Part shown: positions 7,238 to 56,722 of the stretch, piece by piece
How the letters are laid out: every line of letters begins with the position of its first letter
Position numbering within the stretch: position 1 is the stretch's first letter
Source of the DNA: a virus
DNA length: 64,000 nt
Direction: 5' to 3' (one strand)
Virus record (IMG/VR): IMGVR_UViG_3300008267_012518
The notes under the pieces: model-generated
What the model was told of the DNA's origin: nothing
Databases searched by the model: none
Seen by the model: only the letters and a program-made list of their open reading frames with translations
Made by a program: the position numbers and the translations under genes

Positions 7238-7735
7238 TTAGTTTGAAATAGGAATTAATTTATCTTTGTATAGTACAAATTCCTTGGTATAAACAACCTT
7301 GCCCGAATGAGAATAAAGATTGACTAATAATTTCATCTTATCTTTACGTCCAAATATTGATTTGATTGATAGAAGTTCAGTTTTCATGTAAATACTCTCA
7401 ATCTCATCTTCTTTCAGATAATAATTATCAACATCCAATTCTTTAGAGTAAACTTTTGAAATTTCAAAGTCGTATATTCTCAAGATCTTGAACCACCAAA
7501 AATCATGTAACCAATCCCAAAAAGTTCTTTTTGTTTTGACTTTAGTAATGTCTTTTATTTCTATATGTGAAAGACAATCAGACATCCTTACGTCTATCTC
7601 AAAAAAAATAGTGCCATCATTTGATAAAGCACTATAATTTTCTACGTATATTTTTGGTGGGTGTCTACCTATTTTCTGACCTGATGATGTAAATGATCTA
7701 AGGGTTAGTATTACAAATAGGAGGTAGTATTTCAT
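7238..7735 (-). CDS. Hypothetical protein with signal-peptide-like N-terminus
   Basis: 165 aa; MKYYLLFVILTL...; 4-nt overlap with upstream gene. Confidence 0.55.
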   Translation of the reverse strand: MKYYLLFVILTLRSFTSSGQKIGRHPPKIYVENYSALSNDGTIFFEIDVRMSDCLSHIEIKDITKVKTKRTFWDWLHDFWWFKILRIYDFEISKVYSKELDVDNYYLKEDEIESIYMKTELLSIKSIFGRKDKMKLLVNLYSHSGKVVYTKEFVLYKDKLIPISN

Positions 7736-8214
7736 TCATCTTTTATGACTTTGTCAATTTGTTTATCTCTATATATTTCTGGTGCAATTTCGGATAAATC
7801 ATAATCCCAAATCTGACATGCCTCTTCTAAACCATAAGTAACAAAATTAATTTCCTTACCATCTTTGAACTCATAGAACCCACAATTATATCCCAAATCT
7901 TCATCAGCAAATGTAACCTCAAATATTAAGTCAGGATATCTTTCTGAAAGGGTACACATTAATTCATGTGGTGTTGACCAAGCGGTATCAAAACATATAT
8001 AACCGTTTTCATCTTCGTAAGTTTCATCCACATCCCATTTGGTCCCCCAATTTTCCACAGACCAATCATACCAACCATCACCAATATCTTTTGGTCTTGG
8101 TAGGATTTTTTCAAATGAAATATGTTGACAATCACTCGCAATATCAAGTGTACATTGTTTGACCTTATCCGAAGGTCCATGTATAAATAATTTGTTTCTA
8201 ACCCAGTTTGGCAT
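7732..8214 (-). CDS. DUF1281/YubB ferredoxin-like phage protein
   Basis: MPNWVRNKL, WYDWSVENWGTKWD, FDTAWSTP, FADEDLG. Confidence 0.7.
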   Translation of the reverse strand: MPNWVRNKLFIHGPSDKVKQCTLDIASDCQHISFEKILPRPKDIGDGWYDWSVENWGTKWDVDETYEDENGYICFDTAWSTPHELMCTLSERYPDLIFEVTFADEDLGYNCGFYEFKDGKEINFVTYGLEEACQIWDYDLSEIAPEIYRDKQIDKVIKDE

Positions 8215-8218
8215 AATA

Positions 8219-8731
8219 TTAAAGATTTATGATTTTGTCGAATCCTTCGTCATTTGTTACTGTTTCCCAATTATCCAACATATTCCGTATGACTGATATT
8301 GGTATGTGCTTATTTTCTTTTTCTTTTCTTATGATATTTCTATTGTTATATTCTTCGAGATCTAATTTTGGAAATACAATTGCAATCTTCTCATACTCTG
8401 AAGATGGAAACTTTGATAGGTGTCGATGTCTACTCTTTTTTGTTAGATTGGTCATGTTTATTACTACGAATTTCCTGTCATTTATACACTGGTTTATTTT
8501 ATCATTTAACAGTTTGTCCACCTCTCTTGGATTCACTTCCAAGAATGCCTGTGAGTAGTTATTATTTTTATGTAGAGACATCAATATATCGTCTCTACTT
8601 ATGATTTGGTGGTTAGAATAAATACCGGTCCTAAGGTAAGTGTCCTTTCCACTAAGGGGTGGTCCTATTAATAGTATTACTCTTGGTTTCATATACAAAT
8701 ATAAAAATAAAATCTGAATTATCAAAATCAT
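8219..8731 (-). CDS. P-loop kinase (polynucleotide kinase/AAA_33-like)
   Basis: GPPLSGKDT, IISRDDI, VINMTNL, RNIIR...IPISVI lid; true start probably the MKPRV Met. Confidence 0.75.
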   Translation of the reverse strand: MILIIQILFLYLYMKPRVILLIGPPLSGKDTYLRTGIYSNHQIISRDDILMSLHKNNNYSQAFLEVNPREVDKLLNDKINQCINDRKFVVINMTNLTKKSRHRHLSKFPSSEYEKIAIVFPKLDLEEYNNRNIIRKEKENKHIPISVIRNMLDNWETVTNDEGFDKIINL

Positions 8732-8737
8732 GTAACA

Positions 8738-9904
8738 TCATGATATACTATTATATTTTATTTCTGTCTCGATCCAATCGTTTAAACTTGATATGTATTC
8801 ACTGATTTCTTTTCTTTTTAAGATAATATCTTTATCATTTAGGTTTTTAATTACTAAATTATTCCCATCCCAGTGAATTTCGTCGTAGTCTATTTCAAGG
8901 TCTGTAAGTAGTTTGTCAATTCTTGACTTTTCATTTGCTAATCTTGCAACATGGGGTTTTACTTCTATAATTTCAAAGGTGTTGTAGTTATATTTAACTA
9001 ATGTTTCGTGTCCATAGTATTCCGTGTCAAGTACAGTGGTTTTAACTTCTGTTGGTAAATCAGAACCTAAACTTTCATCTGAGTAAGATTTGTAAATTCT
9101 ATCACTATAAGAGTATCCAGTACCATAGTCAAAATCATCATCCAAATCATAGTAATTATTTTTGGTTATATCTCTATAAACTTTTAGATTATCCCAATCG
9201 ATTTTACAAACTACTTCACATAGTTTTTCAAGGTGTTTAATGTCTTGCTGTTCATATTTGGTATGTTCATTTTGATATCCAACTGATATATTTGTACACT
9301 CAGGATAAATATCTATAAATTGAGCTGAGTCTGTATAGATACCAGTAGAATCGGGTAGGTACTTAAAAGGTTTGTCAAAAATTTTTGATTTGTTGTTCAA
9401 CTCATTTGATAAGTCACTTGCAAAATTGAATGAACAGCTTCTGCCAGACAATTGGTGTGTAATGACTGAGTCATATCCTCTTCTATCAAATGATACTACT
9501 TTATTCACCCCTTCTATTGGGTTGTCTTTATGTAGATTAGCAACTTTTCTTGAACCTACACAACCCCTTTCCTCCCCTACAAAAAAATAATACAAACCTG
9601 GTACGTTTTTCTCTATTAGTGTCAAAAGTACTACAACACCTGCCTTATCATCAGCACCTAAGATAGAAGTACCATCTGAGTAAATCATATCCCCTTTGAT
9701 TAAATGATTTACCTCAACCGAATCATAAGAAGCGGTGTCTAGATGACTTGTAAACATAGTAGTTGGTTTATCTCCAATTTGATGATAAAGATTACCGAAT
9801 TGATCTTGTTTTAGAAAATTAGGTAAGAATTTTGATACTTCTATCTCAACACCATGTGGATATGTTTGTTTGGTGAGTTCAATAAATTTTTCTTTTACGT
9901 TCAT
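8738..9904 (-). CDS. M28/M20-like zinc peptidase with Tyr/Asp-rich tail (paralogue of 62799..63977)
   Basis: HLDT, GADDKAG, GEERG, FDRRG, YTDSA, GYQNEHT. Confidence 0.75.
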   Translation of the reverse strand: MNVKEKFIELTKQTYPHGVEIEVSKFLPNFLKQDQFGNLYHQIGDKPTTMFTSHLDTASYDSVEVNHLIKGDMIYSDGTSILGADDKAGVVVLLTLIEKNVPGLYYFFVGEERGCVGSRKVANLHKDNPIEGVNKVVSFDRRGYDSVITHQLSGRSCSFNFASDLSNELNNKSKIFDKPFKYLPDSTGIYTDSAQFIDIYPECTNISVGYQNEHTKYEQQDIKHLEKLCEVVCKIDWDNLKVYRDITKNNYYDLDDDFDYGTGYSYSDRIYKSYSDESLGSDLPTEVKTTVLDTEYYGHETLVKYNYNTFEIIEVKPHVARLANEKSRIDKLLTDLEIDYDEIHWDGNNLVIKNLNDKDIILKRKEISEYISSLNDWIETEIKYNSIS

Positions 9905-9998
9905 ATTTTTTTTGTTCTACGATGAACACTCTTATTCATCTTTACAAAGATAGTAATAAATATTTTAAATGTCAAGATATATTTAATATATATTTTAT

Positions 9999-12263
9999 AT
10001 GCTTCAAATAATCTCTGATCCTACGGAAGAAACCTTTAAGATTTACGAATCATGGTCACTCACAGCTACAATGAGTGCTGAGCTACCACCAGTTTTTGGA
10101 AGGATAGGTGACCAATATATTGTAGGTGTAACTGACTTAAACAATATCCTAAGTTTCAAAACCTTTAATTTCGATTACACTATGAAAACCGACAATAGGT
10201 TTCTTAAAACTTATTACCGCTTAAGTAGAGATACAGAAAACTGGACTGAATGGTATGATTTACCATCAACCATAAAGGAATTCCCACCTTTTAATGATGG
10301 TGATACACTTTCTTTGGATATAAAATTTGTTAGAGAGGGAAATTCTGAATATGGTTTAATAAAATTACTTAGTTGGTCAATAGATGGTCTTAAACAAAGA
10401 AATCAAACTGATGGGGAATCTAAAATCATATTGACTGAGGAAAACAATCAAGTAATAATCAAACCCCCCTTTATATTTAAAGTTTTCAAAATTGAAGACA
10501 TAGAAATTTTATCCTCTGACAAATCTTTGACCGATGTCTCAATAAAGTATAGATACTCACAGGATTATGGTAGAACTGTCACCAATTGGGAATACTTTAC
10601 CAAAGAAAATATAACAACCACAAAAATAAACCCAATTAGATTTTTTCAAATAGAGTATCTTTTGGAATATACAGGTAAAGGTCAAACAAAAATATTTGAT
10701 ATAAATTTAATAGGAGACTTTCAAAATGTTACCGAAGACTACAAGAAGAGTAATGTATATGGCATAAGGGAAAACTGTAATTGTGAAAGACTTGGAATTG
10801 TTGGAGATACAACATCGAGTACCACAACTCCGACCGGAGGTCAACCAAACCTATTGACACAAACAGAACCAACCAATGTCCTTCCAATATTGTCTAATGA
10901 CCAAATAAACTCATTATATAAACCCTATCAACTACCAAAGGCCACTGAACTTCTAACGAAAATGGTGAATGATGCTAATCAGATGTTTGGACATGAGGTA
11001 GTATACTTTATAACTGATCCTGACAAAAAGGGTATAGATCACACATTCCATGAATATCAATTATTTAACTATGTATGTGAAAGGTTAATTAAAGTGTCTG
11101 TGGAAAATAATCAATTTCCAGACAATCAAATAGTGATGAACCAATTTGATCTATCATTATTTGAAGCTTTTGAGGTCCATGTTCCAAAATTATTTTTTAA
11201 AGAACAATTCGGACCAGAAAAAAGACCGTCAAAAGAAGATTTTCTTTGGTTTTGTGAATTGAATAGAATGTTTATTGTTGAACATGCTCAACAGTTTAGG
11301 TCTTTCAACAATAATGCAGTCTATTACAAGTTACACCTCAAGAAATACGTACAAAAATCCAATGTCATTGGAGTTAATCAAACAATCACTGAGAAAGTTC
11401 AAGAACTTACTAAGAATTCAACAATCAATGAATTGTTTGGTCAAGAAAATACACTTGATAAAAAATCCGTATCCAACAAAGAGGAATTCAGACCGTTGAC
11501 TAGAGATATCACTAGGGTTAGTATAGTTGCTAATATAGTAAAACAATTGGTTGAAAATGCAGAATTAGTGATAAGTAAGTCTCACTATGATTTGTCCACT
11601 GTGACGTTTTCTGTTACACAGTCTTATCCAGCTGTAACTTACAGAAATATCAAAGATTATTTTGCACCAAGTGATAATTTATGTTATACTTGTTGGTTCA
11701 ATTTGAATAATTATATTAACGATGACAAATATAATTTTTTCAATTATTATGACAATTTGAATAATGTTGGATTAAATTTCCAATTGAAGTCAGATGAAAT
11801 ACAAATAAAAATAAACCAAAATAGTTACAGTTTCGAGCTTATGGGTGTAACTGGTGGATCCGAGGGTTTATATGAGGATACTTGGTATGCCTATTTGGTG
11901 AATATAGATCAAAGAAAGAGGGAACTAAGTCAGTATATTTATAAAAGGGATATAGAAGACGAAGACCTTGGGAGTAAAGTTAATTCCACTAAACTTAAAT
12001 TAATAAAGACCAAAACCCAAACTTTGTCTAATTTTGAATTTTCTATTGATAATATTCATGCGTCTATTCTCTCAAGTGATATGAGGATAACCAACATAAG
12101 ACTTCTTTCAGAAGTGATACCTATTAACCAACATTCAATTTTCTTAAACCAATATCACCTAAGAGACGACACAAAATATTTAATTTTTGGGGATAATGCG
12201 AATCAAAGATTAAGTTTACCTTATATGCCATTAAATCAAGTTGGTAGCAATGATGTTGGATAA
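9999..12263 (+). CDS. Virion structural protein; centre resembles T4 gp14-type neck protein, C-terminus LamG-like
   Basis: FGHEVVYF...FHEY...FEVHVPKLFFKEQFGPEKRPSKEDFLW; C-terminal WFNL, DTWYAYLVN, ITNIRL; TAATATATA upstream. Confidence 0.5.
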   Translation: MLQIISDPTEETFKIYESWSLTATMSAELPPVFGRIGDQYIVGVTDLNNILSFKTFNFDYTMKTDNRFLKTYYRLSRDTENWTEWYDLPSTIKEFPPFNDGDTLSLDIKFVREGNSEYGLIKLLSWSIDGLKQRNQTDGESKIILTEENNQVIIKPPFIFKVFKIEDIEILSSDKSLTDVSIKYRYSQDYGRTVTNWEYFTKENITTTKINPIRFFQIEYLLEYTGKGQTKIFDINLIGDFQNVTEDYKKSNVYGIRENCNCERLGIVGDTTSSTTTPTGGQPNLLTQTEPTNVLPILSNDQINSLYKPYQLPKATELLTKMVNDANQMFGHEVVYFITDPDKKGIDHTFHEYQLFNYVCERLIKVSVENNQFPDNQIVMNQFDLSLFEAFEVHVPKLFFKEQFGPEKRPSKEDFLWFCELNRMFIVEHAQQFRSFNNNAVYYKLHLKKYVQKSNVIGVNQTITEKVQELTKNSTINELFGQENTLDKKSVSNKEEFRPLTRDITRVSIVANIVKQLVENAELVISKSHYDLSTVTFSVTQSYPAVTYRNIKDYFAPSDNLCYTCWFNLNNYINDDKYNFFNYYDNLNNVGLNFQLKSDEIQIKINQNSYSFELMGVTGGSEGLYEDTWYAYLVNIDQRKRELSQYIYKRDIEDEDLGSKVNSTKLKLIKTKTQTLSNFEFSIDNIHASILSSDMRITNIRLLSEVIPINQHSIFLNQYHLRDDTKYLIFGDNANQRLSLPYMPLNQVGSNDVG

Positions 12264-12360
12264 TTTTTTTCAAAATTGGAAAAACTTCTGTTTTTTGTTG
12301 TGATATATATTTGAACAGAAATTGATTGGTCAACTCAGATCAATCAAAAAAAAAATTTCT

Positions 12361-13206
12361 ATGTTTAACACACAAACTTATCACACTCTCGTACAGAAGA
12401 TGCGAGAATTTTTTTTGCAAAAAGGTTTCTATGAGGTACCTACACAATCAAGATTATCAATCTTGGCAGCTTGTGAAAATCCTCATTCAATTACAACATA
12501 TAACTATCAAGGTCTAGTTTGGCCACTACCCCAAACAGGCCAAATGTGGTTAGAGTATGAGTTACTAAAAAACCCCGAGTGGAAAGGATGTTTCTGTATC
12601 TCAACTTCCTATCGACAAGAAAAAAACCCAATTCCTGGTCGTCACGAATTAATTTTCCCAATGTTCGAATTTGAATCCAAAGGAACTATGGAAGATATGT
12701 TGAGACTTGAAAGTGAATTACTAACTCATTTGGGTTTTGATAGTCCAGTGGAAGTTAAGTATGACGATGTTTGTCAAGAGTATGGTGGTGTTCCGATCTT
12801 GGAAAATGAACATGAACAAAGGATGTGGGATGAAAAGGGTCCTGTTATATCACTTCAACATTTCCCTTTGAGGACTAATCCGTTTTGGAATATGAGACAT
12901 AACGATAATGGAATTTTCAATAAAGTAGATGTTATTCTATATGGTCAAGAGACCATTGGTTCGGCCGAAAGGAGTTCTGATATTGAAAAAATGAGAGAAA
13001 TGTTCTACACAATCGAAGATGGAAAATATTCTGAAAAACTTTTTGAATTATTTGGAAAAGATAGAGTTGAAAAGGAATTAGAAGATTTTTTCAAACATGA
13101 CTTCTTTCCAAGATTTGGTGGTGGTATAGGAATGACCAGAATGGCTAGAGCCTACGAAATGCTACAAAAAGATAAATTAGTTGAGTCTGTACTCGAAGAA
13201 GCATAA
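12361..13206 (+). CDS. Class IIb aaRS catalytic-domain paralogue with no anticodon domain (archaeal-type asparagine synthetase-like)
   Basis: Motif 2 SYRQE...GRHELIFPMFEFE, ETIGSAER, motif 3 GGGIGMTR; 281 aa from first ATG; no N-terminal OB fold. Confidence 0.75.
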   Translation: MFNTQTYHTLVQKMREFFLQKGFYEVPTQSRLSILAACENPHSITTYNYQGLVWPLPQTGQMWLEYELLKNPEWKGCFCISTSYRQEKNPIPGRHELIFPMFEFESKGTMEDMLRLESELLTHLGFDSPVEVKYDDVCQEYGGVPILENEHEQRMWDEKGPVISLQHFPLRTNPFWNMRHNDNGIFNKVDVILYGQETIGSAERSSDIEKMREMFYTIEDGKYSEKLFELFGKDRVEKELEDFFKHDFFPRFGGGIGMTRMARAYEMLQKDKLVESVLEEA

Positions 13207-13207
13207 T

Positions 13208-13236
13208 AAAAAAGGGGGATAAATTCCCCCTTTTTT
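13208..13236. terminator. Bidirectional intrinsic terminator
   Basis: AAAAAAGGGGGA-TAAAT-TCCCCCTTTTTT between convergent genes. Confidence 0.85.
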
Positions 13237-13999
13237 ATTTTAAGTCGGTTGAGAAATACATCATGTTATGTTTTGCTAAACGAAAACTTCCACCGTTGTA
13301 GTCAACTAATGACAACAACCAAGCCCTTTCGTTATTGTTACCCGAGGTCTTATGTACTTCATATTGTTCTCTTAAGTGATAGGAGGCAACTCTGATATCA
13401 TCAATAAGATGGTGGTTTGTCTTACCTATTTTATTCAAAATATATTTTCTAGTACAAGGCATAATCTGTGGTATACCTTTTGCACCAGAGTTTTTATTGG
13501 TGATATTACAAAAACCAGATTCTTGGTCTAAAAGTCTGAAGAATATACTTGCTGGTATCTTATTTGAGTTTATCTCCGAAACAATTGTGAAAAAAACTTC
13601 ATCCGAAAGTTTCTGTAAATTTACATAGTTTTTTACTTTGTATTTTGAATGAGCTAGATATTCGATATATCTTCTCTCCTCCCTAAGTTTGTCAAAATCC
13701 AAATTGTCGATTGACTTATTAATAAAACTTTTCTTGACTACTACAACTGTTTTTTCTGATGCTGTAATTCTTCCGAATGTAAAAAAAGTCAGACATAATA
13801 ATATTGGAATCAATATTATCGATAAGATAAACTTATTATGTCTGATAACCATTATCAATGAGTTTTGAGATCTATAGTCTGGGTAAATTACCCAACTCAG
13901 TAGAGATATGAATTGTATCTTTATATTTTCCTCGAACCATTTACTTTTGAATGTAGATGTAAGTAACCAATGATGGAATTTAATGAGGTCATAATTCAT
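13235..13999 (-). CDS. Membrane-anchored lytic transglycosylase (SLT domain)
   Basis: LLDQESGF, SGAKGIPQIMP, YNGG; hydrophobic FILSIILIPILLCLTFF; true start may be downstream. Confidence 0.75.
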   Translation of the reverse strand: MNYDLIKFHHWLLTSTFKSKWFEENIKIQFISLLSWVIYPDYRSQNSLIMVIRHNKFILSIILIPILLCLTFFTFGRITASEKTVVVVKKSFINKSIDNLDFDKLREERRYIEYLAHSKYKVKNYVNLQKLSDEVFFTIVSEINSNKIPASIFFRLLDQESGFCNITNKNSGAKGIPQIMPCTRKYILNKIGKTNHHLIDDIRVASYHLREQYEVHKTSGNNNERAWLLSLVDYNGGSFRLAKHNMMYFSTDLK

Positions 14000-14015
14000 A
14001 AGGTTAAATTAATTT

Positions 14016-14750
14016 TTAATAAGGATATAGATGATAAATTTCATTTATATCCAGTAAATGATGGTCAACTTCATTGTGAGTTTCTAATTTACTCTTATGA
14101 AAATGACCATAAAAATGTTTCTTGATTTTATTATTTTCGTATATGTCAAGAAATATATTTGTCATTAGATTTCTTTCAAATGAAAGATCTCCAATTAAAC
14201 CACTATCATGTTTTGACCAATCCTCAACAAAGGAACCAAACCCAAGTTTATTACATGGATCGCACCAATCGGGTGCTGTGTGGGTTATGATAATATCAAT
14301 ATCTTTTAAGTTCTTAGTAATTTCGGGATTATATACGATACCCTCCTTTTCCCAATAACATCTTTTTCTACTTCCGTATTTGATGTTACTATTATTTTCC
14401 TTAATTCTTTGGGTCCTATCAACACTAATAGCACCACCAATAAATAAGAATTTGTAACCTTCTAAATTAAGGGTGGTGTAGTCTGGTAAAAGTTTCAAAT
14501 GACTAAAATCATAGTCACCATTGAAGAAACCTGGACTATCATGGTTTCCTCGAATAGCGAGCAAGGTAACATTAACATCCTTCAAGAAGTCATTAAGATT
14601 CTTCAAAGTTTGTTCATCATTTTCCTTGTAACTAAACCCAATTCCAAAATCACCAACTTGAATAATAGTACAATCAGTAATTTGTTTAGAGTGGATTTGA
14701 TGTTTGAGGAAATTGAAATTTCCGTGTATGTCGCCTAATAATAAAACCAT
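14016..14750 (-). CDS. Calcineurin-like metallophosphoesterase
   Basis: GDIHG, GDFG, GNHD, THT, GHFH. Confidence 0.9.
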   Translation of the reverse strand: MVLLLGDIHGNFNFLKHQIHSKQITDCTIIQVGDFGIGFSYKENDEQTLKNLNDFLKDVNVTLLAIRGNHDSPGFFNGDYDFSHLKLLPDYTTLNLEGYKFLFIGGAISVDRTQRIKENNSNIKYGSRKRCYWEKEGIVYNPEITKNLKDIDIIITHTAPDWCDPCNKLGFGSFVEDWSKHDSGLIGDLSFERNLMTNIFLDIYENNKIKKHFYGHFHKSKLETHNEVDHHLLDINEIYHLYPY

Positions 14751-14754
14751 ATTG

Positions 14755-14762
14755 CGAAGATA
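14755..14762 (-). promoter_or_regulatory. Bacteroidota-type -7 promoter element (one mismatch)
   Basis: TATCTTCG-CAAT-ATG; same 4-nt spacing as five perfect sites. Confidence 0.5.
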
Positions 14763-14830
14763 CGAAATTTATATATCTTTACCAAAACTATAAAAAAAGC
14801 AATACCCTAAATTTTCTGTAAATTTCAAGG

Positions 14831-15802
14831 TTATTGACCCATTATGTAGGAAAACATTAAGGGGGCAACTATAGTGGCATCACTTTCGATTATAAATTTT
14901 GGAGTATTTATATCTAACTTACCCCAAGTAATTTTCTCATTTGGAACTGCACCCGAATATGATCCATAACTTGTGGTTGAGTCGGAAATCTGACAGAAGT
15001 AAGACCAGAAAGGAACATCGGTCCATTCTAAGTCTTGATACATCATTGGGACTACACAAATTGGGAAATCACCAGCAATACCACCACCAATCTGAAAGAA
15101 TCCAACACCTTTACCACCAGAGTTTTTTCTATACCAATCAGAAAGGAAAACCATATAATCAATGCCACATTTAACTGTAGTAGATTTTAATTTACCCTTG
15201 ATTACATTTGAAGCAAAAATATTTCCTAGTGTGGAATCTTCCCAACCTGGAACGATAATAGGTAAGTTTCTCTCACAAGCCGCGATCAACCAACTATCTT
15301 TAGGATTGATTTCATATTCCTTTTCCAAATCTCGATTCCTTATTATTTGGTAAATAAATTCATGGGGAAACATGGGATAATTCTTTCTTTCAGCAGTCTC
15401 CCAATAGAATTCAATTACTTTCTGAATTTTTCTGAAAGCTTCTTCTTCTGGTATACAAGTATCGGTTACTCTATTTAGTCCTCGTTCCAATAAATCCCAT
15501 TCATCTTGTGGTGTTAGGTCTCGATAGTTTGGAACTCTTTTATAATGAGAATGAGCTACTAAATTCATTAAATCTTCTTCTAGGTTTGCTCCTGTACAAG
15601 AAATGATATGGACCTTATTTTGTCTAATCATCTCTGCGAGGGAAATACCAAGTTCAGCTGTACTCATAGCACCTGCTAAAGTGATCATCATTTTACCACC
15701 CTCTTCCAAATGTTTTTGGTAGGCGATGGATGCGTCCCTTAAAGATGCTGCGTTAAAATGTTTAAAATTTTTATCAATAAAAGAGGTGATAGTCTTTTCC
15801 AT
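14831..15802 (-). CDS. Deoxyhypusine synthase-like protein (probable homospermidine synthase)
   Basis: LAGAMSTAELG, TGANLEED, QIGGG, GSYSGA, EKITWGK with catalytic Lys, ESDATIVAPL. Confidence 0.9.
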   Translation of the reverse strand: MEKTITSFIDKNFKHFNAASLRDASIAYQKHLEEGGKMMITLAGAMSTAELGISLAEMIRQNKVHIISCTGANLEEDLMNLVAHSHYKRVPNYRDLTPQDEWDLLERGLNRVTDTCIPEEEAFRKIQKVIEFYWETAERKNYPMFPHEFIYQIIRNRDLEKEYEINPKDSWLIAACERNLPIIVPGWEDSTLGNIFASNVIKGKLKSTTVKCGIDYMVFLSDWYRKNSGGKGVGFFQIGGGIAGDFPICVVPMMYQDLEWTDVPFWSYFCQISDSTTSYGSYSGAVPNEKITWGKLDINTPKFIIESDATIVAPLMFSYIMGQ

Positions 15803-15844
15803 CTAATTTATATTGAAAAAATCAAAAATGTTTATATATAGAAT

Positions 15845-31522: not shown

Positions 31523-31525
31523 TAT

Positions 31526-33754: not shown

Positions 33755-33784
33755 AAAAAGGGGGGTCATTGACCCCCCTTTTTT
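33755..33784. terminator. Bidirectional intrinsic terminator
   Basis: AAAAAGGGGGGTC-ATT-GACCCCCCTTTTTT between convergent genes. Confidence 0.85.
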
Positions 33785-34526: not shown

Positions 34527-34603
34527 ATCTTAAATTATATACAAATATAACAAATAAAATGAACAATATATATTTTTATAAATATAAATAAAAAAAAATT
34601 TTT

Positions 34604-34909
34604 ATGAAAACAGAAAAAATTTCTGCAGAGACAAAAGAAGAAACAGTGGGTTCAGTTTCCATGGAGCCAAACAATATACAAGTTGAACTCAGTGAAGAGG
34701 AGCAAGCAAGGATGGATGAGGTTAAGTCTCTAGTTGAGGCCGAGACCCTTGATCCTACCACATCCATGAATATTTTAATAAATGCTGTTCAGTTAGCTTT
34801 TGATTCTGAAGTTTATAACGACTTAGACCGTTACTTAATTGCTAAGTCTCTGAATTGCTTCAAATCCCACGTGGATAAGGGTGAGGATATTTTACTAAAA
34901 GTGGCTTAA
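34604..34909 (+). CDS. Hypothetical acidic protein
   Basis: 101 aa; AATATATA upstream. Confidence 0.65.
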   Translation: MKTEKISAETKEETVGSVSMEPNNIQVELSEEEQARMDEVKSLVEAETLDPTTSMNILINAVQLAFDSEVYNDLDRYLIAKSLNCFKSHVDKGEDILLKVA

Positions 34910-35562: not shown

Positions 35563-35638
35563 ATATTACAAAAGTAAGTGATTTAGGTTTCATTTACAAA
35601 CTTTAAAAAATATATATACTTTAAATCGAAAAATTTCC

Positions 35639-36112
35639 ATGAAAAGTAGTAAAATATTAGAATCTTATAGGAACGGTTATTTATTGAACGCGGAAGAACT
35701 TGATAAAGTACCCAGAGAATTTAAAATCGTTTTGATCGATTTTTTAAAAGAAAAGTATTTGGATAACAATCTTAAGAATAAAAAAAGTATTGAAAAACTC
35801 TCCGACATTTTTGGAAAAAAGATCATAAATGAACACAACACTATGAAGGTTCCTTACTTTGACGTTCTCGAAAACATAAACCTGTGTATCGAAGTTGAAA
35901 TGTCTGATCAGATTGTTGAAGAGGAGGGTTCACAAAAATTTGGAGAAACTAAATTTTCACAAATTTTAGAAAGTGGTATTTCAACTTCTAATCCGATAAA
36001 TAGATTTGCAATATCTGAAAAAAGTTTCAAATCTTCGTTGGAAGATTTTATTTCTATTTACACTAATGAATTTGAAGTTGTGGGAGATTCTATTAAAATA
36101 GAATTCAATTAA
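35639..36112 (+). CDS. Hypothetical protein
   Basis: 157 aa; AATATATA upstream; coupled to M16 peptidase. Confidence 0.65.
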   Translation: MKSSKILESYRNGYLLNAEELDKVPREFKIVLIDFLKEKYLDNNLKNKKSIEKLSDIFGKKIINEHNTMKVPYFDVLENINLCIEVEMSDQIVEEEGSQKFGETKFSQILESGISTSNPINRFAISEKSFKSSLEDFISIYTNEFEVVGDSIKIEFN

Positions 36113-36113: not shown

Positions 36114-37220
36114 ATGATAATAAATCTCAAAAGTCAAACCGATTTATCTGGTTTTTATGTGGTTTTTTATGGTTCAACGAACTTTGAAGAAAGGGGTATT
36201 TATGGTATTTCACATTTGATGGAACACCTTATTTGTAAAAATTTTGAACATTTGAGGGATGATTTTGAAAAAGAGGGTATTGAATGGAATGCCTACACAA
36301 CTCAAAATGAAATTGTTTTTTATTTCACCGGATTGGATGAATACTTAATGAAACAAAAATATGAATTAGTTGAGTTGATTACTGATTTCAAAGTTTCGAA
36401 AGAACAATTTGAGAATGAGAGAAAGATTATACTACAAGAATATAAAAACCATTTTTCGGATCAATCAAACTGCCATTTATCAAATCTGAGTAGAAAGTTA
36501 TATAAAGATTATGACGCAATCGGTCTCAAAGAAGATCTCGAAACAATTAGATATATGGATTGTCTTAATTTCTTTGAAAAACAATTCAAAAATCCATCGA
36601 AAATAATAAATGTTTCGAAAGGCCAACCCTTCAAAATTGATGTTGAGTTTTCTAATTCAGAGATCGATAAAAAATTTGAATTTGGTCCGTATAAAGATGT
36701 TATTTTGGAACCCACTCGAAATTATGGAGATAAGGTATCAATATGTTTAACATCCAAAACAATTGAGGATGATTTCAGTTATGTAATTTTCATCAACAAT
36801 ATGTTGACACTTGGTCTATCTTCACCTTTTTACTCGGAGATAAGAGAAAAGAGGGGTTTGGTCTATCATATAGGGTGTCATCAATCAAGGATGAACGATC
36901 AAGGTGTGAATATTATAAGTACTGAAACATCTAATAAGAATGTTGAATTACTTATCGACAGTTTCAAGGATGTGATGAAAAATCCTGATAAATTTATTTC
37001 AAAGAAACGTTTTGATTTAGTTAGAAGGTCTTATCTTATTAAATTCCAAAAAGATAAAATTAATAGATTTCAGAATATAAATAATTGGATTAATCCCACA
37101 GACTGGTCAGTCAAAGAAATAATCAAGACCATCAACTATGATAAAGTTATGGATGTCTATGATAAGTATTTTAAATTTGATGATTTTTATATATCTAACG
37201 ATAGAACAGAATTTAATTAG
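36114..37220 (+). CDS. M16 (insulinase-like) zinc peptidase
   Basis: GISHLMEH (HxxEH), WNAYT, FENERKIILQE, EIREKRGLVY. Confidence 0.9.
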   Translation: MIINLKSQTDLSGFYVVFYGSTNFEERGIYGISHLMEHLICKNFEHLRDDFEKEGIEWNAYTTQNEIVFYFTGLDEYLMKQKYELVELITDFKVSKEQFENERKIILQEYKNHFSDQSNCHLSNLSRKLYKDYDAIGLKEDLETIRYMDCLNFFEKQFKNPSKIINVSKGQPFKIDVEFSNSEIDKKFEFGPYKDVILEPTRNYGDKVSICLTSKTIEDDFSYVIFINNMLTLGLSSPFYSEIREKRGLVYHIGCHQSRMNDQGVNIISTETSNKNVELLIDSFKDVMKNPDKFISKKRFDLVRRSYLIKFQKDKINRFQNINNWINPTDWSVKEIIKTINYDKVMDVYDKYFKFDDFYISNDRTEFN

Positions 37221-45286: not shown

Positions 45287-46006
45287 TTATTTTTTTACTA
45301 ACCACAAGTGACCAACCATTCCCATTTGGAATTTGTCAAAGTGTCCCATGGATTCAACTTTGTGGGATTTCTCATTTTTTGGAAATTTGATACCGGTTAA
45401 TTTTTGTTTTCCGTAAATTCTTTTATCTCCATTACAGGTTTTACAAGGTGACCATCCAACCTGACCCTCTCCGTTACAGATCGTACAAGTTTTTCCAAAT
45501 GGGTCTTTACCACTACCCTCACAAAAATCACATCCATCAGAACCATCAAATAGTTTCAATATATTTCCGAATTCATCTTTGATTTCTATTTTTGATTTTG
45601 TGTCCTTACCATTCCCCTTACAATCTTTACAGACAACCCATCTATCATATTCTATACTTCCATCAAAGCGATCATCGATTTTCAACAAAATATTCAAATC
45701 ATTCTGATTCCATTGGCTTTCGAATTTCTCATTGTCGTAAGCAACATTTAGATTTTCATACTCATTACTCAATAGTTCTTTAGTTTCGTCATATGAGTTT
45801 CCAAACCTACTTCTGACATCATATTGTTTTCTAGTTTCATCAACTAATACATCATACGATTCGGTAATTTCGGCAAATAATATGGGGTCACCTCCTTTAT
45901 CCGGATGGTGTGTGAATGAAAGCTTGTAATAGGCTTTCTTAATTTCTTTTTCTGATGATGTATTTGGAACACCTAAAATTCCGTAATAATTCTTATTGAA
46001 GTTCAT
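45287..46006 (-). CDS. dnaJ: DnaJ-like co-chaperone (J domain plus zinc finger, short C-terminus)
   Basis: NYYGILGV, HHPDKGGD; CKDCKGNG, CDFCEGSG, CTICNGEG, CKTCNGDK. Confidence 0.9.
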   Translation of the reverse strand: MNFNKNYYGILGVPNTSSEKEIKKAYYKLSFTHHPDKGGDPILFAEITESYDVLVDETRKQYDVRSRFGNSYDETKELLSNEYENLNVAYDNEKFESQWNQNDLNILLKIDDRFDGSIEYDRWVVCKDCKGNGKDTKSKIEIKDEFGNILKLFDGSDGCDFCEGSGKDPFGKTCTICNGEGQVGWSPCKTCNGDKRIYGKQKLTGIKFPKNEKSHKVESMGHFDKFQMGMVGHLWLVKK

Positions 46007-46187
46007 CTAGTTTACTTTGTCGCCACTTAGCTTTTTTAATTTCATTTCTCCTTTCAACAGATGGTTTTGTGAACTCCTTTCTGCGTCTCAGTTCCTTAGT
46101 AATTCCAATTTTATCAAACTTACGTTTGAACTTTTTCAAAGCTTTTTCAAGTCCATCTTTACCGCCTTGTACTTCAATTATAATCAT
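45993..46187 (-). CDS. rpsU: Ribosomal protein bS21
   Basis: LEKALKKFKRKFDKIG...LRRRKEFTKPSVERR. Confidence 0.92.
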   Translation of the reverse strand: MIIIEVQGGKDGLEKALKKFKRKFDKIGITKELRRRKEFTKPSVERRNEIKKAKWRQSKLDELQ

Positions 46188-46504
46188 TTGTCTTCAATTA
46201 ATTTTTTTAGTTTCAAGTCTCTGATAAAACCTTTCTTTTCTTCTTTGGTCATTTCAGTAAACCTTTTATAATCCATATCAATTCCCATAAATTGATAGAA
46301 TATATCTATATATTCGATAATATCTGAATTCATAAAAACCCCATCACTCCAAGATATCGTATTATTCCCAGTAGTGAGGGTGGTTCCGCTAGTTACTGAT
46401 GGATAAACATATCCTCCACTACCTGTAGTTGTCCCCCAATAATGTCCAATATTACTATTCAGTGAAACTGCGGGTAAGGTTGTTTTTAATTTTTTGATAG
46501 CCAC
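46184..46504 (-). CDS. Hypothetical protein with C-terminal RDxK helix
   Basis: Thr/Gly-rich N-half; ends IRDLKLKKLIEDK. Confidence 0.65.
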   Translation of the reverse strand: MAIKKLKTTLPAVSLNSNIGHYWGTTTGSGGYVYPSVTSGTTLTTGNNTISWSDGVFMNSDIIEYIDIFYQFMGIDMDYKRFTEMTKEEKKGFIRDLKLKKLIEDK

Positions 46505-46513
46505 ATAATTACA

Positions 46514-46765
46514 TTATTTTTTATCATGACAATACTCATGTTCACAAGATTTGTGTCTACATTTATATCCAGCCCAAATTGTTGGAACTAAACAACAAAT
46601 GATGTGGTATTTGAATCCATAGAGTATCATGAGACCAAACCAACCCCAAGTCATCATTTTGAAATCAAACCAAAAATATTGATTAAGAATGTATTCTAAA
46701 ATTTCTGTCAGTATAAAACTGATTACAAATATCAGTATAAATTTTAGAATTATTTTTGATTTCAT
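46514..46765 (-). CDS. Small two-TM membrane protein (holin candidate)
   Basis: Two hydrophobic stretches, Cys/His-rich charged tail KCRHKSCEHEYCHDKK; near endolysin. Confidence 0.5.
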   Translation of the reverse strand: MKSKIILKFILIFVISFILTEILEYILNQYFWFDFKMMTWGWFGLMILYGFKYHIICCLVPTIWAGYKCRHKSCEHEYCHDKK

Positions 46766-46794
46766 AATCTTTATATCGAATAAAGGATTATAGT

Positions 46795-47352
46795 TTAAAT
46801 CTTATCAATACAAGCCTTAACAGCCTCTGGTGTTAATCCCATAATCCCATACTCAGAATGAAATGCACCTTCCTCAATTAACATCATAAAATCTTGACTA
46901 GACCATTCATCAGTAACACCGCTATCAGTAAAAGTTATCTTATACCTGTCCTCTAACTCATAATCAAACCCACGACGCAGATGTGTAAATTGTTGGAAAA
47001 CATGAGTATATTTATATTCAATACTTATGGGTATCTGATCTATCTCTAACTCGTCAATCTCTGGACCTTCTCCTAAATCATCCATCTTAGAAACCCAAAA
47101 GGTAGGAAAATCACAATGCCAAATTTTTCCCTTTCTATTAATTTGGTTGATAAAATTATTTATATTGATCAAATTATCCTCCGAAAACTTATTGTAATCC
47201 TTGAAGTTTATATCTTTTATTTCAACAAAAATGTCGTGTTCATTTTTATATTCTTCGATTGTATCGAAGATTTTATCCATCCTTATTTGTAATAATCTAT
47301 CATACTCCTGTGATGAAGAGTACTCATTGATAGTAGTATAAATTCTTTTCAT
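46795..47352 (-). CDS. Hypothetical acidic protein (possible internal head protein)
   Basis: Starts MKRIYTTINEY; TAATATATA upstream. Confidence 0.6.
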   Translation of the reverse strand: MKRIYTTINEYSSSQEYDRLLQIRMDKIFDTIEEYKNEHDIFVEIKDINFKDYNKFSEDNLININNFINQINRKGKIWHCDFPTFWVSKMDDLGEGPEIDELEIDQIPISIEYKYTHVFQQFTHLRRGFDYELEDRYKITFTDSGVTDEWSSQDFMMLIEEGAFHSEYGIMGLTPEAVKACIDKI

Positions 47353-48411: not shown

Positions 48412-50156
48412 TGTCCAACTCGGACCGATTTAGTGTCGACACTATCGTCCATCGATACTTCATTAATACTTGTAAATACATCCTTATTGATCGATAATAT
48501 CCTATCAAAGATTTCTTGATTTAATATTGCGTGGTGTACTACAAAAATGTTAATCTTATAATCATTTGCGAATGATTTCAAAAGATTTAGAATTGATTCA
48601 CAGGATTCGATGTCCATACTTGAAAATACTTCATCCAAAAAAAGAATGTTGATGTGTTTTTTTGTTCTTATGAGTTTCAGATAAGCAATTAGTATACATA
48701 GATTGACTTTTTTAGTTTCACCAGTACTCAAACTATCGTGGTCAATTGTGTTACCAAATTGTTTAATTTCAGCAGTGAATGTTTCATCCAACTTAACTTG
48801 AAATGGTAATAACATCTTTTTGATATTCTCTTGAATGAAGTGGTTTATTGGTTTAATTATACCAGCAATGATTGATTTCTTCACACCATCCTCACCGAAT
48901 ATTTTGGATAACTCCTTATAATACAATTCCTTTTCTTTACAAACAGTTTGGTTGTCAACGCTTGATGATTTCTTTTCTTCTAACTCTGATATAGCTTGTT
49001 CAAACTCTTGAATGTTTACATTTGATTTACCAGTATCATTATCTTTCTGTTGTTGTAACTTGTCTATTTGTGATTTGTAATTTCTAAGAAGATACGTAAT
49101 ATCATCAAAAGATTTTTTAGTTTTATCAGATATTGTTTGAAGTTTTGACTGTTTTTCTCTTATCGACTTGATATTTGTTTCCAAAACCAATTTGATATCA
49201 TCCAGAGACTTCTTTTTATCAATCAATGATTGTTTCAGACCAATAAAATGGTCATTAAGAAAATCAGTTCCACAAGTTGGACATTTACCGGATTCGTATA
49301 AATCAATGTCCTTCTGAGCTGATTTGATATCATGTCCAATTTTAATATATTGTTCTTTCTCCGTTTCAAGTTCTGATTTGAGTTCATCATCTTTTTGTTT
49401 AATCTTATCGACTTTTTCTTTTAACTGTTGATACTCACCTTTTCTTGATTCCATATCATTTTTGATTTCATCAATTTCGGATTGTATATTTAACTTTTCC
49501 TTTTCGATGGCTTTTTCAATAGATTGTTTTATTCTTTCTATTGAAGAATTGAGTGTTGATATTTCTGAATCAAATTTAGCATTTTGTAATTTATTTGTTT
49601 TAACCAAATCCTTCAAAATGCCATTCAATAAGTTGATGACTTCAAGATTGAATAACTTATCAAGTAAAAGTTGTTTTTCTTCATTTGATAGACTAATAAA
49701 ATTTTTGAAATCATTGATTGACATTGATATGAATGATTTGAATGTCTCAATATCCATACCAATATAGTTTTCGATCTTTTCATCTATATTAGCTTTTCCA
49801 GCTCTATCATTTTCCAAACCATTTTCAATCAATTTCAAAACACTTGGACCAATACCTCTGATTACTTCTACTTCAGTACCATTAGATAAAAATTTAATTC
49901 TATTTTGAAGTTCACCATTAATTCTATTTGGTAGGGTTCCAAGTGTAGCCCACTTTTTCTTTTTCATAGATTTGACCTTTCCATAGAGAACATATTCAAA
50001 ACTTTCAATGAAACTACTTTTACCGTTACCATTCGATCCAGTCAAAAGAATTAACTCTCCTTTATCAGAGTTTAGTTTTAACGTTTGTTCGTTGTTTCCA
50101 AAACTTTTAAATCCACGGATCCCAATTTCTGATATTATCATATTAAGTATACTCAA
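48396..50156 (-). CDS. Rad50/SbcC/T4 gp46-like ATPase
   Basis: GFKSFG, GSNGNGKSS, coiled coil with CPTCG hook, LSTGE signature, FLDEVFS. Confidence 0.93.
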   Translation of the reverse strand: MSILNMIISEIGIRGFKSFGNNEQTLKLNSDKGELILLTGSNGNGKSSFIESFEYVLYGKVKSMKKKKWATLGTLPNRINGELQNRIKFLSNGTEVEVIRGIGPSVLKLIENGLENDRAGKANIDEKIENYIGMDIETFKSFISMSINDFKNFISLSNEEKQLLLDKLFNLEVINLLNGILKDLVKTNKLQNAKFDSEISTLNSSIERIKQSIEKAIEKEKLNIQSEIDEIKNDMESRKGEYQQLKEKVDKIKQKDDELKSELETEKEQYIKIGHDIKSAQKDIDLYESGKCPTCGTDFLNDHFIGLKQSLIDKKKSLDDIKLVLETNIKSIREKQSKLQTISDKTKKSFDDITYLLRNYKSQIDKLQQQKDNDTGKSNVNIQEFEQAISELEEKKSSSVDNQTVCKEKELYYKELSKIFGEDGVKKSIIAGIIKPINHFIQENIKKMLLPFQVKLDETFTAEIKQFGNTIDHDSLSTGETKKVNLCILIAYLKLIRTKKHINILFLDEVFSSMDIESCESILNLLKSFANDYKINIFVVHHAILNQEIFDRILSINKDVFTSINEVSMDDSVDTKSVRVGHYSVV

Positions 50157-52781: not shown

Positions 52782-52792
52782 ATTAAAAATTA

Positions 52793-54070: not shown

Positions 54071-54445
54071 TTATTGACCGATTCTAAATGAATTTGTTTG
54101 ACTTGTTCCCCCTATTTTATTTGTTCTTGTAATACCATCGCCACCAGGTACTTTATAAGTCATGTAGTCTATTTCACCACCAATCAATTCGGGATTTCTT
54201 TTGAAATATTTGATAGCTTTATTTCTTAATTCTTCACCATATGCGTCCATGTCATCCGAAGATAAGTCTTTTGGGAATTTTTGACCTATTTTTTTAGCCA
54301 AATCTTCATATCTACCTTTAGTGCATAAACCATCGACATAATCTTGGATTTTAAGATCTAGCACTGGATTGAAATCTGGTATCACTTCCCCACCATCGTC
54401 CACACCAGTTTGGTGAAACATTTCAAATTTTTTAATAAATTTCAT
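54071..54445 (-). CDS. Hypothetical protein (possible internal head protein)
   Basis: Starts MKFIKKFEMF; TAATATATA upstream. Confidence 0.6.
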   Translation of the reverse strand: MKFIKKFEMFHQTGVDDGGEVIPDFNPVLDLKIQDYVDGLCTKGRYEDLAKKIGQKFPKDLSSDDMDAYGEELRNKAIKYFKRNPELIGGEIDYMTYKVPGGDGITRTNKIGGTSQTNSFRIGQ

Positions 54446-54463
54446 ATTAATTATATATTAAAC

Positions 54464-54494: not shown

Positions 54495-54498
54495 TACT

Positions 54499-55101: not shown

Positions 55102-55161
55102 AAATAAGCCAACTTTTATAAACTGATAAATATAACTGAAATTCAAAATAACTTAAATTAT

Positions 55162-55632
55162 ATGGCAAAAATACCTATGACCCGAGAAGGGTTTCAAAAA
55201 TTAGAGCAAGAATTAAAGGATATGCGTGGTCCACAGTTGAGGGAACATATCCAAAATTTGGCAGAAGCAAAAGATAAAGGTGACCTTTCAGAAAATGCTG
55301 AATATGATGTCGCTAAAACAGCTATTGATGATTTAAATAGAAAAATCAATAAACTTTCACAGAAGTTAGCAGATGCTGAAATTATTGAAGGTATTATCGA
55401 TGATGGTACAGTTCAACTACTTACTTGGGTTAAATTCAAAAATACTAAGAGTGGGGTTACGATCGAATATCGAATTGTGCCAGAAAATGAAATTGATATT
55501 AAATCTGGTAAAATCTCGCACCTAAGTCCTATTGGAAGTGCTCTAATGGGTAATCGAGTTGGAGATAAAGTAATTGCAGAAGTACCTATTGGTAAAATGG
55601 AACTTGAGATTTTGGAAATCAGAGTTAAGTAA
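55162..55632 (+). CDS. greA: Transcription elongation factor GreA
   Basis: GDLSENAEY acidic tip, ISHLSPIGSALMG. Confidence 0.95.
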   Translation: MAKIPMTREGFQKLEQELKDMRGPQLREHIQNLAEAKDKGDLSENAEYDVAKTAIDDLNRKINKLSQKLADAEIIEGIIDDGTVQLLTWVKFKNTKSGVTIEYRIVPENEIDIKSGKISHLSPIGSALMGNRVGDKVIAEVPIGKMELEILEIRVK

Positions 55633-55904
55633 TGATTGGTCTTTACAAGGGTCATGTATTTCAAGGATCTAATAAGATGTGGCAAGAGTATAGAATTGTT
55701 CATCTTGGTAAGTGGGATGGGAGTGATGAAGTTTTTTTTACAACCTACCACCACGAATTTCCAAATGAGAGATTACAAATCTATCTTCATAAATACAAAC
55801 CTTTGTCAAGAACATTCAAAGCTAATATTGACCAGTATATGAAAAAAGATCCTTATTTTATTGAATTAAACAGAGAAGAAAAATTAAACGATTTACTATC
55901 ATGA
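55632..55904 (+). CDS. Hypothetical protein with C-terminal REEK helix
   Basis: Ends NREEKLNDLLS. Confidence 0.65.
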   Translation: MIGLYKGHVFQGSNKMWQEYRIVHLGKWDGSDEVFFTTYHHEFPNERLQIYLHKYKPLSRTFKANIDQYMKKDPYFIELNREEKLNDLLS

Positions 55905-56278
55905 TAAAAATAGAAGTTGACTGTATAGACGAAAAAATTGAACTCCTTGATAGGATTAAAATCCTACATAAGAAAATGAAAAAATCCCTAAATAAAGATG
56001 GGGATAAAATGTTTGATGAAGATGAACTTATAGATTTCCCATTCTATATTGATCCCTTTCATATTAAAGTAACAACAGAAGAATCTATTCAAAAAATGAT
56101 TAATAAGTTAATTGATGAATATTGGGAAAATGTTGACTTCGATCTTGGATATGAAAATGAAAAGTATTATGTTTGTCATAAGAAATCAAAACACGTAGTT
56201 GAACTGGACAAGGGTAGTACCTGGGACGACTATAGGGATGAAAGAATTAAATTGAAGAACTTTTTTGAAAGTATTTGA
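55901..56278 (+). CDS. Hypothetical acidic protein
   Basis: 125 aa; 4-nt overlap. Confidence 0.65.
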   Translation: MIKIEVDCIDEKIELLDRIKILHKKMKKSLNKDGDKMFDEDELIDFPFYIDPFHIKVTTEESIQKMINKLIDEYWENVDFDLGYENEKYYVCHKKSKHVVELDKGSTWDDYRDERIKLKNFFESI

Positions 56279-56293
56279 TATAAGAAAACTAAT

Positions 56294-56369
56294 GGTTCCG
56301 TAGCTCAGCCCGGATAGCAGCAACTCACTTCTAATGAGTAGGTCATAGGTTCGAATCCTATCGGAACTA
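56294..56369 (+). tRNA. tRNA-Arg(UCU), CCA not encoded
   Basis: GGTTCCG/CGGAACT acceptor, ACTCA-CTTCTAA-TGAGT anticodon arm, ATAGG-TTCGAAT-CCTAT T arm. Confidence 0.92.
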
Positions 56370-56370
56370 C

Positions 56371-56402
56371 AAAGGAACTCTAAATGAGTTCCTTTTTCTT
56401 TT
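56371..56402 (+). terminator. Intrinsic terminator after tRNA-Arg
   Basis: AAAGGAACTC-TAAAT-GAGTTCCTTT then TTCTTTT. Confidence 0.8.
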
Positions 56403-56535
56403 CATTTATTTAATCCATAAATCTTGGGATTTTTGGTATGATTATCAAAATGATTTACATAGAATAAGAGAAGAAAAGATAAATGAGATATTTGGTATAG
56501 GTAAGGAAACTTTAAAAGATATTTGGCCAGAGTAA
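56401..56535 (+). pseudogene. Start-less coding remnant carrying the REEK motif
   Basis: Frame reads FIYLIHKSWDFWYDYQNDLHRIREEKINEIFGIGKETLKDIWPE*; no in-frame ATG between the tRNA and the stop. Confidence 0.45.
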
Positions 56536-56557
56536 AACTTTATATTACCTTTGTATT

Positions 56558-56722
56558 ATGAATTCTGAACAATACCTCAACTATCTACAAGAATCTCAAC
56601 ATATTGCACTTGAGTCCTATAATTACATAGGTGAAATGTATAATTCTTACATGACTAGTCAACTCTATGACGAATATCTTCAACTTCAGAGGGATGAAAA
56701 GATTGATGAAATACTAAACTAA
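56558..56722 (+). CDS. 54-aa protein with C-terminal RDEK helix; not in ORF track
   Basis: TACCTTTG-TATT-ATG; MNSEQYL...LQLQRDEKIDEILN*; stop abuts tRNA-Cys. Confidence 0.7.
   Translation: MNSEQYLNYLQESQHIALESYNYIGEMYNSYMTSQLYDEYLQLQRDEKIDEILN

Follow-up and report, generated by a model that had tools for sequence, protein, structure and literature searches.

A short C-terminal tail recurs on unrelated small proteins in a clade of very large AT-rich phages

The 64-kb stretch of DNA analysed here (hereafter the window) occupies bases 95,271-159,270 of one 178,052-bp virus record in IMG/VR (IMGVR_UViG_3300008267_012518), which has a GC content of 32% and a completeness of 78% (CheckV). Several dissimilar open reading frames (ORFs) in the window terminate in a similar short peptide, which we call the RDxKI tail. 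Its consensus is [ILVFY]-R-[DEN]-x-[KRQ]-[IL]-x-x-[ILV]-[LIF], usually located zero to six residues ahead of the stop codon. In extended form it reads (K)-(S/Q)-x-[ILVY]-R-[DEN]-x-K-[IL]-[NDK]-x-[IL]-L-[DNK], with the stop codon usually one or two residues further on. ORFs were called mechanically across the whole 178-kb record (n = 194; 56,810 amino acids), and 81 of them are held in common, largely in synteny, with LR745206, a 635-kb uncultured phage. Tail genes in the window are given by window coordinates, and features placed by their position in the whole record are marked as such.

Five C-terminal copies had been cited in a sequence-only reading of the window, and four of these are located at the ends of real ORFs. 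The first belongs to a 160-amino acid protein encoded on the minus strand (7732-8214) that consists of a DUF1281_C body (Api92-like, ferredoxin-like) with an added tail and ends in YRDKQIDKVIKDE at the stop codon. Its motif, RDKQIDKVI (7744-7770), stops four residues short of the terminus. Homologues found by tblastn in other phages end at query residue 135-142, indicating that the tail is an add-on. The gene is part of a unit headed by a TAnnTTTG promoter. The second copy, RDLKLKKLI (46196-46222), is carried by a 106-amino acid minus-strand protein of no known family (46184-46504) that ends in IRDLKLKKLIEDK. The stop codon of this gene overlaps the start of the gene for ribosomal protein bS21, and a mini-DnaJ is encoded further along the same late-type unit. 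The LR745206 orthologue (296395-296664) is 36% identical, keeps the sequence IRDIKIKRVL and has a conserved gene order.

The remaining two ORFs are on the plus strand. A 90-amino acid protein (55632-55904) carries the tail REEKLNDLL (55872-55898) and ends in NREEKLNDLLS. Its gene comes second in an operon that begins with a GreA/GreB-like factor and is located behind a box resembling promoters of extracytoplasmic function (ECF) sigma factors. Orthologues of this protein fall into 27 clusters, and R81, E83, L88 and L89 are invariant among 18 aligned sequences. The tail is modelled by AlphaFold2 within a helix spanning residues 74-89. A 54-amino acid protein (56558-56722) ends in QRDEKIDEILN, with the tail RDEKIDEIL at 56690-56716. 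A TTTG-N19-TAnnTTTG promoter is present 4 nt ahead of its ATG, and its orthologue in a 464-kb relative keeps the tail and ends in LQRDEKIEEILK.

The fifth cited copy, REEKINEIF (56467-56493, plus strand), did not hold up as a tail gene. Its frame (56404-56535, cited as 56401-56535) has no ATG, GTG or TTG start, is located between the terminator that follows a tRNA-Arg and the promoter at 56558, and continues for 13 residues after the nine-residue motif. We read it as the probable relic of a tail gene and not as a functional member. A proposed weaker internal copy, TRDIGLKEIF on the minus strand (33783-34526), is likewise not a member, as it is internal and has Gly at the K/Q position, and it was not counted. 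A possible variant with changed spacing ends a 125-amino acid plus-strand protein (55901-56278), which terminates in YRDERIKLKNFFESI and is conserved in the 464-kb relative. Further variants seen by eye in the record are RENRIKSIL, RDELINDIL and RNDKIQSIL.

The expression under which the tail was first described, R-[DE]-x-[KQ]-[IL]-x-x-[ILV], has seven matches in the 194 ORFs, six of which end two to four residues from the stop codon. The number of C-terminal matches expected by chance is 0.01 when whole proteins are shuffled and 0.04 when only the last 20 residues are shuffled, and the single internal match is near the 1.1 expected. Two of the six C-terminal copies are located outside the window, in 114 kb that the sequence-only reading had not seen (0.03 expected, P ~4e-4), and therefore serve as an out-of-sample confirmation of the motif. 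Enrichment at C-termini over shuffled sequences is at least 150-fold in each of three genomes, namely the record itself (six tails against 0.02-0.04), LR745206 and the IMG/VR genome G004. We also applied a motif-free test that counts protein pairs whose last 13 residues share a 9-mer with a BLOSUM62 score of at least 28. This test yields 918 pairs in LR745206 and 147 in G004, compared with 87 and 15 after shuffling. The count of C-terminal against internal and shuffled positions that had been proposed as a check thus gives strong C-terminal enrichment in the record and its relatives, and confirms that the tail is real.

The tail is characteristic of one group of huge, AT-rich phages, in which 4-9% of the proteins carry it and the bearers are mostly small, unrelated and presumably early. 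In LR745206 (950 proteins), 83 tails end within six residues of the stop codon where 0.44 are expected, and 18 further copies are internal or N-terminal (~4 by chance). The corresponding numbers for G004 (385 kb, 478 proteins) are 30 tails, 0.16 expected, and 11 internal or N-terminal copies. No tails are present in the equally AT-rich LR756501 (735 kb, 32% GC, 1029 proteins; ~0.2 expected), where four internal or N-terminal matches are at chance level, or in the Chryseobacterium jumbo phage MA9V-2 (218 kb, 264 proteins; ~0.04 expected, one internal or N-terminal match).

A back-translated DNA pattern for R-D-x-K-I-x-x-I-L, whose reversed controls give zero or one match, was used to extend these comparisons. 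LR745206, LR756502 and three IMG/VR genomes yield counts of 26, 16, 12, 9 and 6, and the counts are zero or one for the equally AT-rich LR756501, LR756504 and LR756508 and for Lak-A1, Lak-B4, T4 and one 676-kb IMG/VR record. When a stop codon is added, the pattern occurs at 47 places in IMG/VR. Of these, 32 are in-frame tails, often two to seven within a few kb, on contigs of 23-33% GC and up to 483 kb. The same search of 596 Gbp of prokaryote genomes returns 111 places, and only four of the 80 examined are in frame. These scans indicate that the tail is specific to the phage clade and characterizes neither cellular proteins nor AT-rich sequence. Mimicry of a host motif was considered and rejected, because almost all of the prokaryote matches are out-of-frame chance occurrences.

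A different terminal motif was encountered in LR756501. This genome lacks RDxKI tails and exhibits an equally strong motif-free C-terminal signal (1036 pairs compared with 113 after shuffling), which is caused by the motif D-P-Y-G-E-E-x-W. The pattern D[PS][YFW]G[ED]ExW has 100 copies, of which 39 are within four residues of the stop codon, 18 directly follow an N-terminal leader and 43 are internal. Its loci include L213-L232 and L253-L269. Short terminal motifs that differ from lineage to lineage thus seem to be widespread among these huge phages.

Among the RDxKI bearers, conservation is confined to the tail. Removal of the tails from 71 LR745206 proteins leaves bodies that form 70 BLAST clusters, and paralogy of the bearers was rejected because BLAST of the bodies reveals none in the record or in LR745206. 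A Pfam search of 70 LR745206 tail proteins returned no credible family (one marginal match, E 8e-4), and a PHROGs search returned four matches, all to PHROGs of unknown function. In the record, the bodies include DUF1281_C, an SH3-like fold and others of no known family. The bearers have a median length of 111-115 amino acids, and 75 of 83 in LR745206 and 29 of 30 in G004 are no longer than 200 amino acids. The tail is kept in 18 of 21 orthologue pairs whose bodies are 30-65% identical, and motif positions are retained between the record and LR745206 in orthologues whose bodies are only 24-38% identical. The tail has been added to, and retained by selection on, many unrelated accessory proteins, mostly of 60-200 amino acids, within one clade that has Bacteroidota-type promoters.

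As claimed from the window, the conservation is at the peptide level. Codons vary between copies, and usage at R0, D1, K3, I/L4 and L8 matches the genome background in 71 LR745206 tails, with a mild preference for ATA at I7. The proposed amphipathic face is also borne out, in that the conserved positions 0, 1, 3, 4, 7 and 8 would fall on one side of a helix and the variable polar positions 2, 5, 6 and 9 on the opposite side. We infer this helical-wheel arrangement from position-specific counts. About 19% of the copies are internal or near the N-terminus, and in these the next residue is N, D or G, as would be expected where a helix ends. Genuine-looking examples are found at residues 16-32 of proteins of 135-160 amino acids. 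Such copies indicate a portable helix that depends neither on the C-terminal carboxylate nor on translation termination.

The tail is concentrated in genes with host-type (early) promoters, and a second terminal element marks a different set of genes. TTTG/TAnnTTTG promoters of the Bacteroidota type are frequent in the record, and tail genes are mostly located in TAnnTTTG-led units. An N-terminal leader, M-K-[HY]-[LI]-K-x-[FY]-x-E, is present on 12 proteins of the record, 49 of LR745206 and 25 of G004, and in none of these genomes does it occur together with the tail on one protein. In the record, the leader genes are located at positions 243-15810 of the whole record and at 54071-54445 of the window. 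Nearly all leader genes directly follow a TAATATATA box located 4-10 nt ahead of the ATG, and a TATATATA box is also found upstream of the gp23-like major capsid gene. Promoter class was assigned from the nearest upstream consensus box, and about half of the tail genes received none. Among those assigned in LR745206, host-type and late-type boxes are distributed 32:2 for tail genes and 0:36 for leader genes (Fisher 6e-18). In G004, the ratios are 16:6 and 2:18 (4.5e-5).

These observations lead us to propose that the tail is a helical docking motif through which one reader handles early accessory proteins as a class, an explanation to which we give about an even chance of being correct. The conserved face (0, 1, 3, 4, 7 and 8) would fit a groove on one reader protein, and this reader would allow the phage to recruit, hold or remove its early accessory proteins together. 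The tail has the general features of short linear docking motifs, in that it is short and modular, occurs on unrelated bearers, is conserved among orthologues and places its conserved residues on one face.

Several points weigh against this proposal. Tail density in the record itself is modest (7-10 of 194 ORFs), and its tail genes are mixed in promoter class, with three host-type, one late and three without a class, two of which are behind an ECF-like box. The equation of host-type boxes with early expression is drawn by analogy with T4 and from the Bacteroidota sigma factor and promoter consensus, and the early class should be read as presumptive. Pro/Gly-rich linkers ahead of the tails were looked for and not found, which means that the helix could pack onto each protein's own body.

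The absence of a linker is one of the points in favour of the main rival, which dispenses with a common reader and regards the tail as a self-associating or intramolecular stabilising helix on young, marginally stable small proteins. Most bearers are indeed orphans of 60-150 amino acids, and an AlphaFold2 model shows the tail continuing a helical C-terminal region. However, the same specific face, with an invariant R, an acidic residue at +1 and K at +3, would be unexpected on dozens of folds if it served only for packing. The element also falls short of the length that a canonical coiled coil requires, with an Arg where the core would lie, and it is absent from related phages with equal base composition and similar orphan genes. 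We consider this rival unlikely.

Candidates for a reader were sought by comparing genomes with and without the tail. There are 164 non-tail proteins common to LR745206 and G004 that are absent from LR756501 and MA9V-2, which are too many candidates to name the reader. The reader could be among these ~164 clade proteins, which include a ClpS homologue and a stand-alone UVR protein, or it could be a host protein. The ClpS homologue is encoded at 180414-180695 (minus strand) in LR745206 and at 48848-49132 (plus strand) in G004, with 81% identity between the two. Neither LR756501 nor LR756508 has ClpS, and none was found in the record, which is 78% complete. The UVR protein (32212-32613) has a host-type promoter, 52 homologue clusters and a conserved NRPxHLAKY sequence. 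It is present in LR745206 and G004 and not in LR756501. Its AlphaFold2 model is all-helical (predicted template modelling score 0.42), and co-folding with the 55632-55904 protein gave a score of 0.01 against a mark of 0.32, a result that counts neither way. A search for BRCT domains found a single match within a 625-amino acid ORF and no small BRCT protein. The clade-specific conserved genes also include one for a Ro60/TROVE plus vWA protein in LR745206 (241087-242538, plus strand), whose G004 copy is 81% identical.

Phage UVR motifs are found in ClpC, a nuclease and the stand-alone protein, and UVR hairpins (~36 amino acids) mediate protein-protein contacts. The full UVR motif (PF02151) is [FY]-E-x-A-A-x-[LI]-R-D-x-[IL]-x-x-L, and its second helix, A-A-x-[LI]-R-D-x-[IL], shares a helical [ILV]-R-D core with the tail. 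However, the hydrophobic register of the tail after R-D is off by one, its positions -3 and -4 are S, Q or K rather than A-A, and the [FY]-E-x-A-A first half is lacking. In agreement, the Pfam UVR model has no match on the window tail proteins or on 70 LR745206 tail proteins and detects ClpC and the UVR protein.

A second rival is a narrower form of the docking proposal, in which the tail serves phage Clp (the phage N-domain-less ClpC and host ClpP) as a degron or as a handle for adaptors, perhaps with ClpS or the UVR protein as intermediary. Clearance at the early-to-middle switch would then remove early proteins, or host targets bound to them. The record encodes a proteostasis kit that includes Hsp70 (the most conserved gene of the phage; 34188-36068 of the whole record, minus strand), a mini-DnaJ with a J-domain and zinc finger (45287-46006, minus strand), an N-domain-less ClpC with an IGF loop (5029-7140, minus strand), and M16 and M28 peptidases. 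The ClpC-like protein and Hsp70 are 69% and 77% identical to their LR745206 copies, and in LR745206 both genes are behind an ECF-like, possibly middle, AAC(T/A)T-N14-17-TATAA box. The M16 (insulinase-type) peptidase (36114-37220, plus strand) is encoded in a late-type unit and has an intact HLMEH zinc motif. Its LR745206 copy is 57% identical, and LR756501 also has one.

Besides this machinery and its promoters, the location of tails mostly on early genes, the presence of ClpS and the UVR protein in tail-bearing genomes, and the typically terminal position of degrons and adaptor-tethering peptides all favour a role in Clp proteolysis. The design also has precedents. The SspB C-terminal ClpX-binding peptide, the viral BC-box/SOCS-box and F-box/PRANC elements resemble the tail in combining variable bodies with one docking element. 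They link target-binding bodies to a degradation machine, and viruses use this design widely. However, these peptides have no sequence similarity to the tail, and the N-domain, where adaptors usually bind, is missing from the phage ClpC. Since a ClpC-like protein and Hsp70 are also encoded by the tail-less LR756508 and LR756501, and the ClpC of LR756508 likewise lacks the N-domain, their phyletic link to the tail is not discriminating, and the N-less ClpC suggested as hub from the window gained no support. Hsp70 clefts and unfoldase pores take extended chains, and direct recognition by either would fit poorly with conserved residues that are spaced as on a helix. ClpS reads N-terminal residues rather than helices. 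In addition, ssrA-like and ClpX C-motif degrons depend on the last three to five residues and a free carboxylate, whereas the tail is followed by zero to six variable residues at variable distance from the stop and may be internal or N-terminal. We regard this handle for Clp as improbable.

A more elaborate version, in which two tags are used, seems less probable again. In this scheme, the tail would be an early-protein class label read by the N-less ClpC and host ClpP through a clade-specific adaptor, for example ClpS or the UVR protein. Scheduled destruction would remove dozens of host-takeover proteins, or the host targets bound to them, the N-terminal leader would sort late proteins into the capsid, and the tags would co-evolve with their readers.

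It is quite improbable that the tail is a cap that protects early proteins by making their C-termini inaccessible to the host's C-terminal quality-control proteases. The early-gene bias and the C-terminal preference are what such a cap would produce. However, internal and N-terminal copies exist, the variable residues after the motif leave the true C-terminus unconserved, and no known precedent requires a specific R-D-x-K helix.

A signal for loading cargo into the virion or capsid is more doubtful still. Encapsulin cargo and microcompartment encapsulation peptides are also terminal amphipathic helices (~10-18 residues) that use a hydrophobic face and occur on unrelated proteins, and one LR745206 bearer has a capsid-related body. 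This 243-amino acid protein (207176-207907, plus strand) is homologous to part of the gp23-like major capsid protein (residues 344-530, E 2e-17) and represents a truncated capsid paralogue. Encapsulation peptides load shells, whereas the tail bearers are early-class proteins encoded mostly in host-promoter units, and this expression class speaks against their being assembled together with the capsid. The T4 capsid targeting sequence (MKTYQEFIAE-type) belongs to a T4-like head-assembly lineage and is also a terminal sorting peptide used on a proteome scale. It is N-terminal, ~10 residues long, ends in the Glu of a prohead-protease site and marks late virion proteins. These features are exhibited not by the tail but by the leader, which is located at the opposite terminus, differs in expression class, marks late genes with the TATATATA box and never accompanies the tail. 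Phage shell cargo thus apparently uses the N-terminal leader, and the compartment scaffold that the sequence-only reading named among possible hubs is an unlikely partner.

The possibility that the tail acts at the RNA or DNA level (in translational coupling, as a promoter or as a recombination site) and mimics a peptide motif, or that it is a compositional artefact, is largely refuted, since overlap with the next gene (31 of 70 tail genes compared with 141 of 501 other small genes) and the mild ATA preference are set against codons that match the background at five of the six conserved positions, the lack of a close downstream gene for 25 of 70 tail genes, and counts near zero in shuffled sequences and AT-rich control genomes.

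We return to the proposed docking motif and its closest formal parallels. The C-termini of T4 gp43, gp33 and gp55 that bind the gp45 clamp, like PIP-box peptides, are short terminal peptides by which unrelated proteins reach one hub, and the hydrophobic spacing of the tail, h4-x-x-h7-h8, is similar to that of the PIP-box plug. However, the PIP-box sequence (Q-x-x-[LIM]-x-x-[FYW]-[FYW], or QL[SD]LF) is not matched, as the tail has R/D/K at the Q position and I/L-L in place of aromatics. Clamp-binding peptides are found on replication and transcription factors, whereas tails are found on dozens of small orphan early proteins. By design, the tail resembles known clamp-binding, targeting and adaptor-tethering peptides while lacking their defining sequence features. 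A literature search for a described motif of this kind returned nothing relevant, and the sequence-only reading likewise knew of no described function. The tail may bind one hub, as suggested earlier, and none of the hubs named for it has gained support.

Other genes of the record complete the setting of the tail genes. The record encodes a Rad50-like ATPase, a UvsX-type recombinase, a gp32-like single-stranded DNA-binding protein, an ECF sigma factor and bS21. The bS21 (45993-46187, minus strand; Pfam S21) ends in the tail lookalike RQSKLDELQ and was rejected as a member, since its LR745206 orthologue ends in IQNIKDSEQD and lacks the motif. The late-type operon in which it is located (45287-47352, minus strand) encodes a 185-amino acid protein with a tail-like N-terminal stretch, a Cys-rich 83-amino acid protein, the 46184-46504 tail protein, bS21 and mini-DnaJ, and LR745206 retains the order tail gene, bS21, DnaJ. 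The GreA/GreB-like transcript cleavage factor (55162-55632, plus strand) is recognized through Pfam matches on its orthologue in the 464-kb relative. A T4 Rnl1-like RNA ligase (30926-32020 of the whole record, plus strand) contains an internal LDEKIDDILS sequence that resembles a tail without the Arg, and the 55632-55904 and 56558-56722 proteins have weak BLAST matches to this ligase (E ~0.02).

The gene content of huge phages consists mainly of orphans without a known role. An element that is present on 4-9% of the proteome, favours one expression class and has a late-tag counterpart offers a handle on ~80 unknown proteins per genome, and naming its reader could in turn point to the process involved. 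The occurrence of RDxKIxxIL here and of DPYGEExW in LR756501 suggests pairs of tags and readers that co-evolve, and such short portable tags could serve as tools in Bacteroidota. If the docking proposal is true, these phages sort their own proteins in time by short linear motifs deployed on a proteome scale, comparable to the way eukaryotic viruses use such motifs with host machinery. If both tags act as suggested, huge phages would possess a two-tag protein-sorting logic in which the tags are specific to each lineage.

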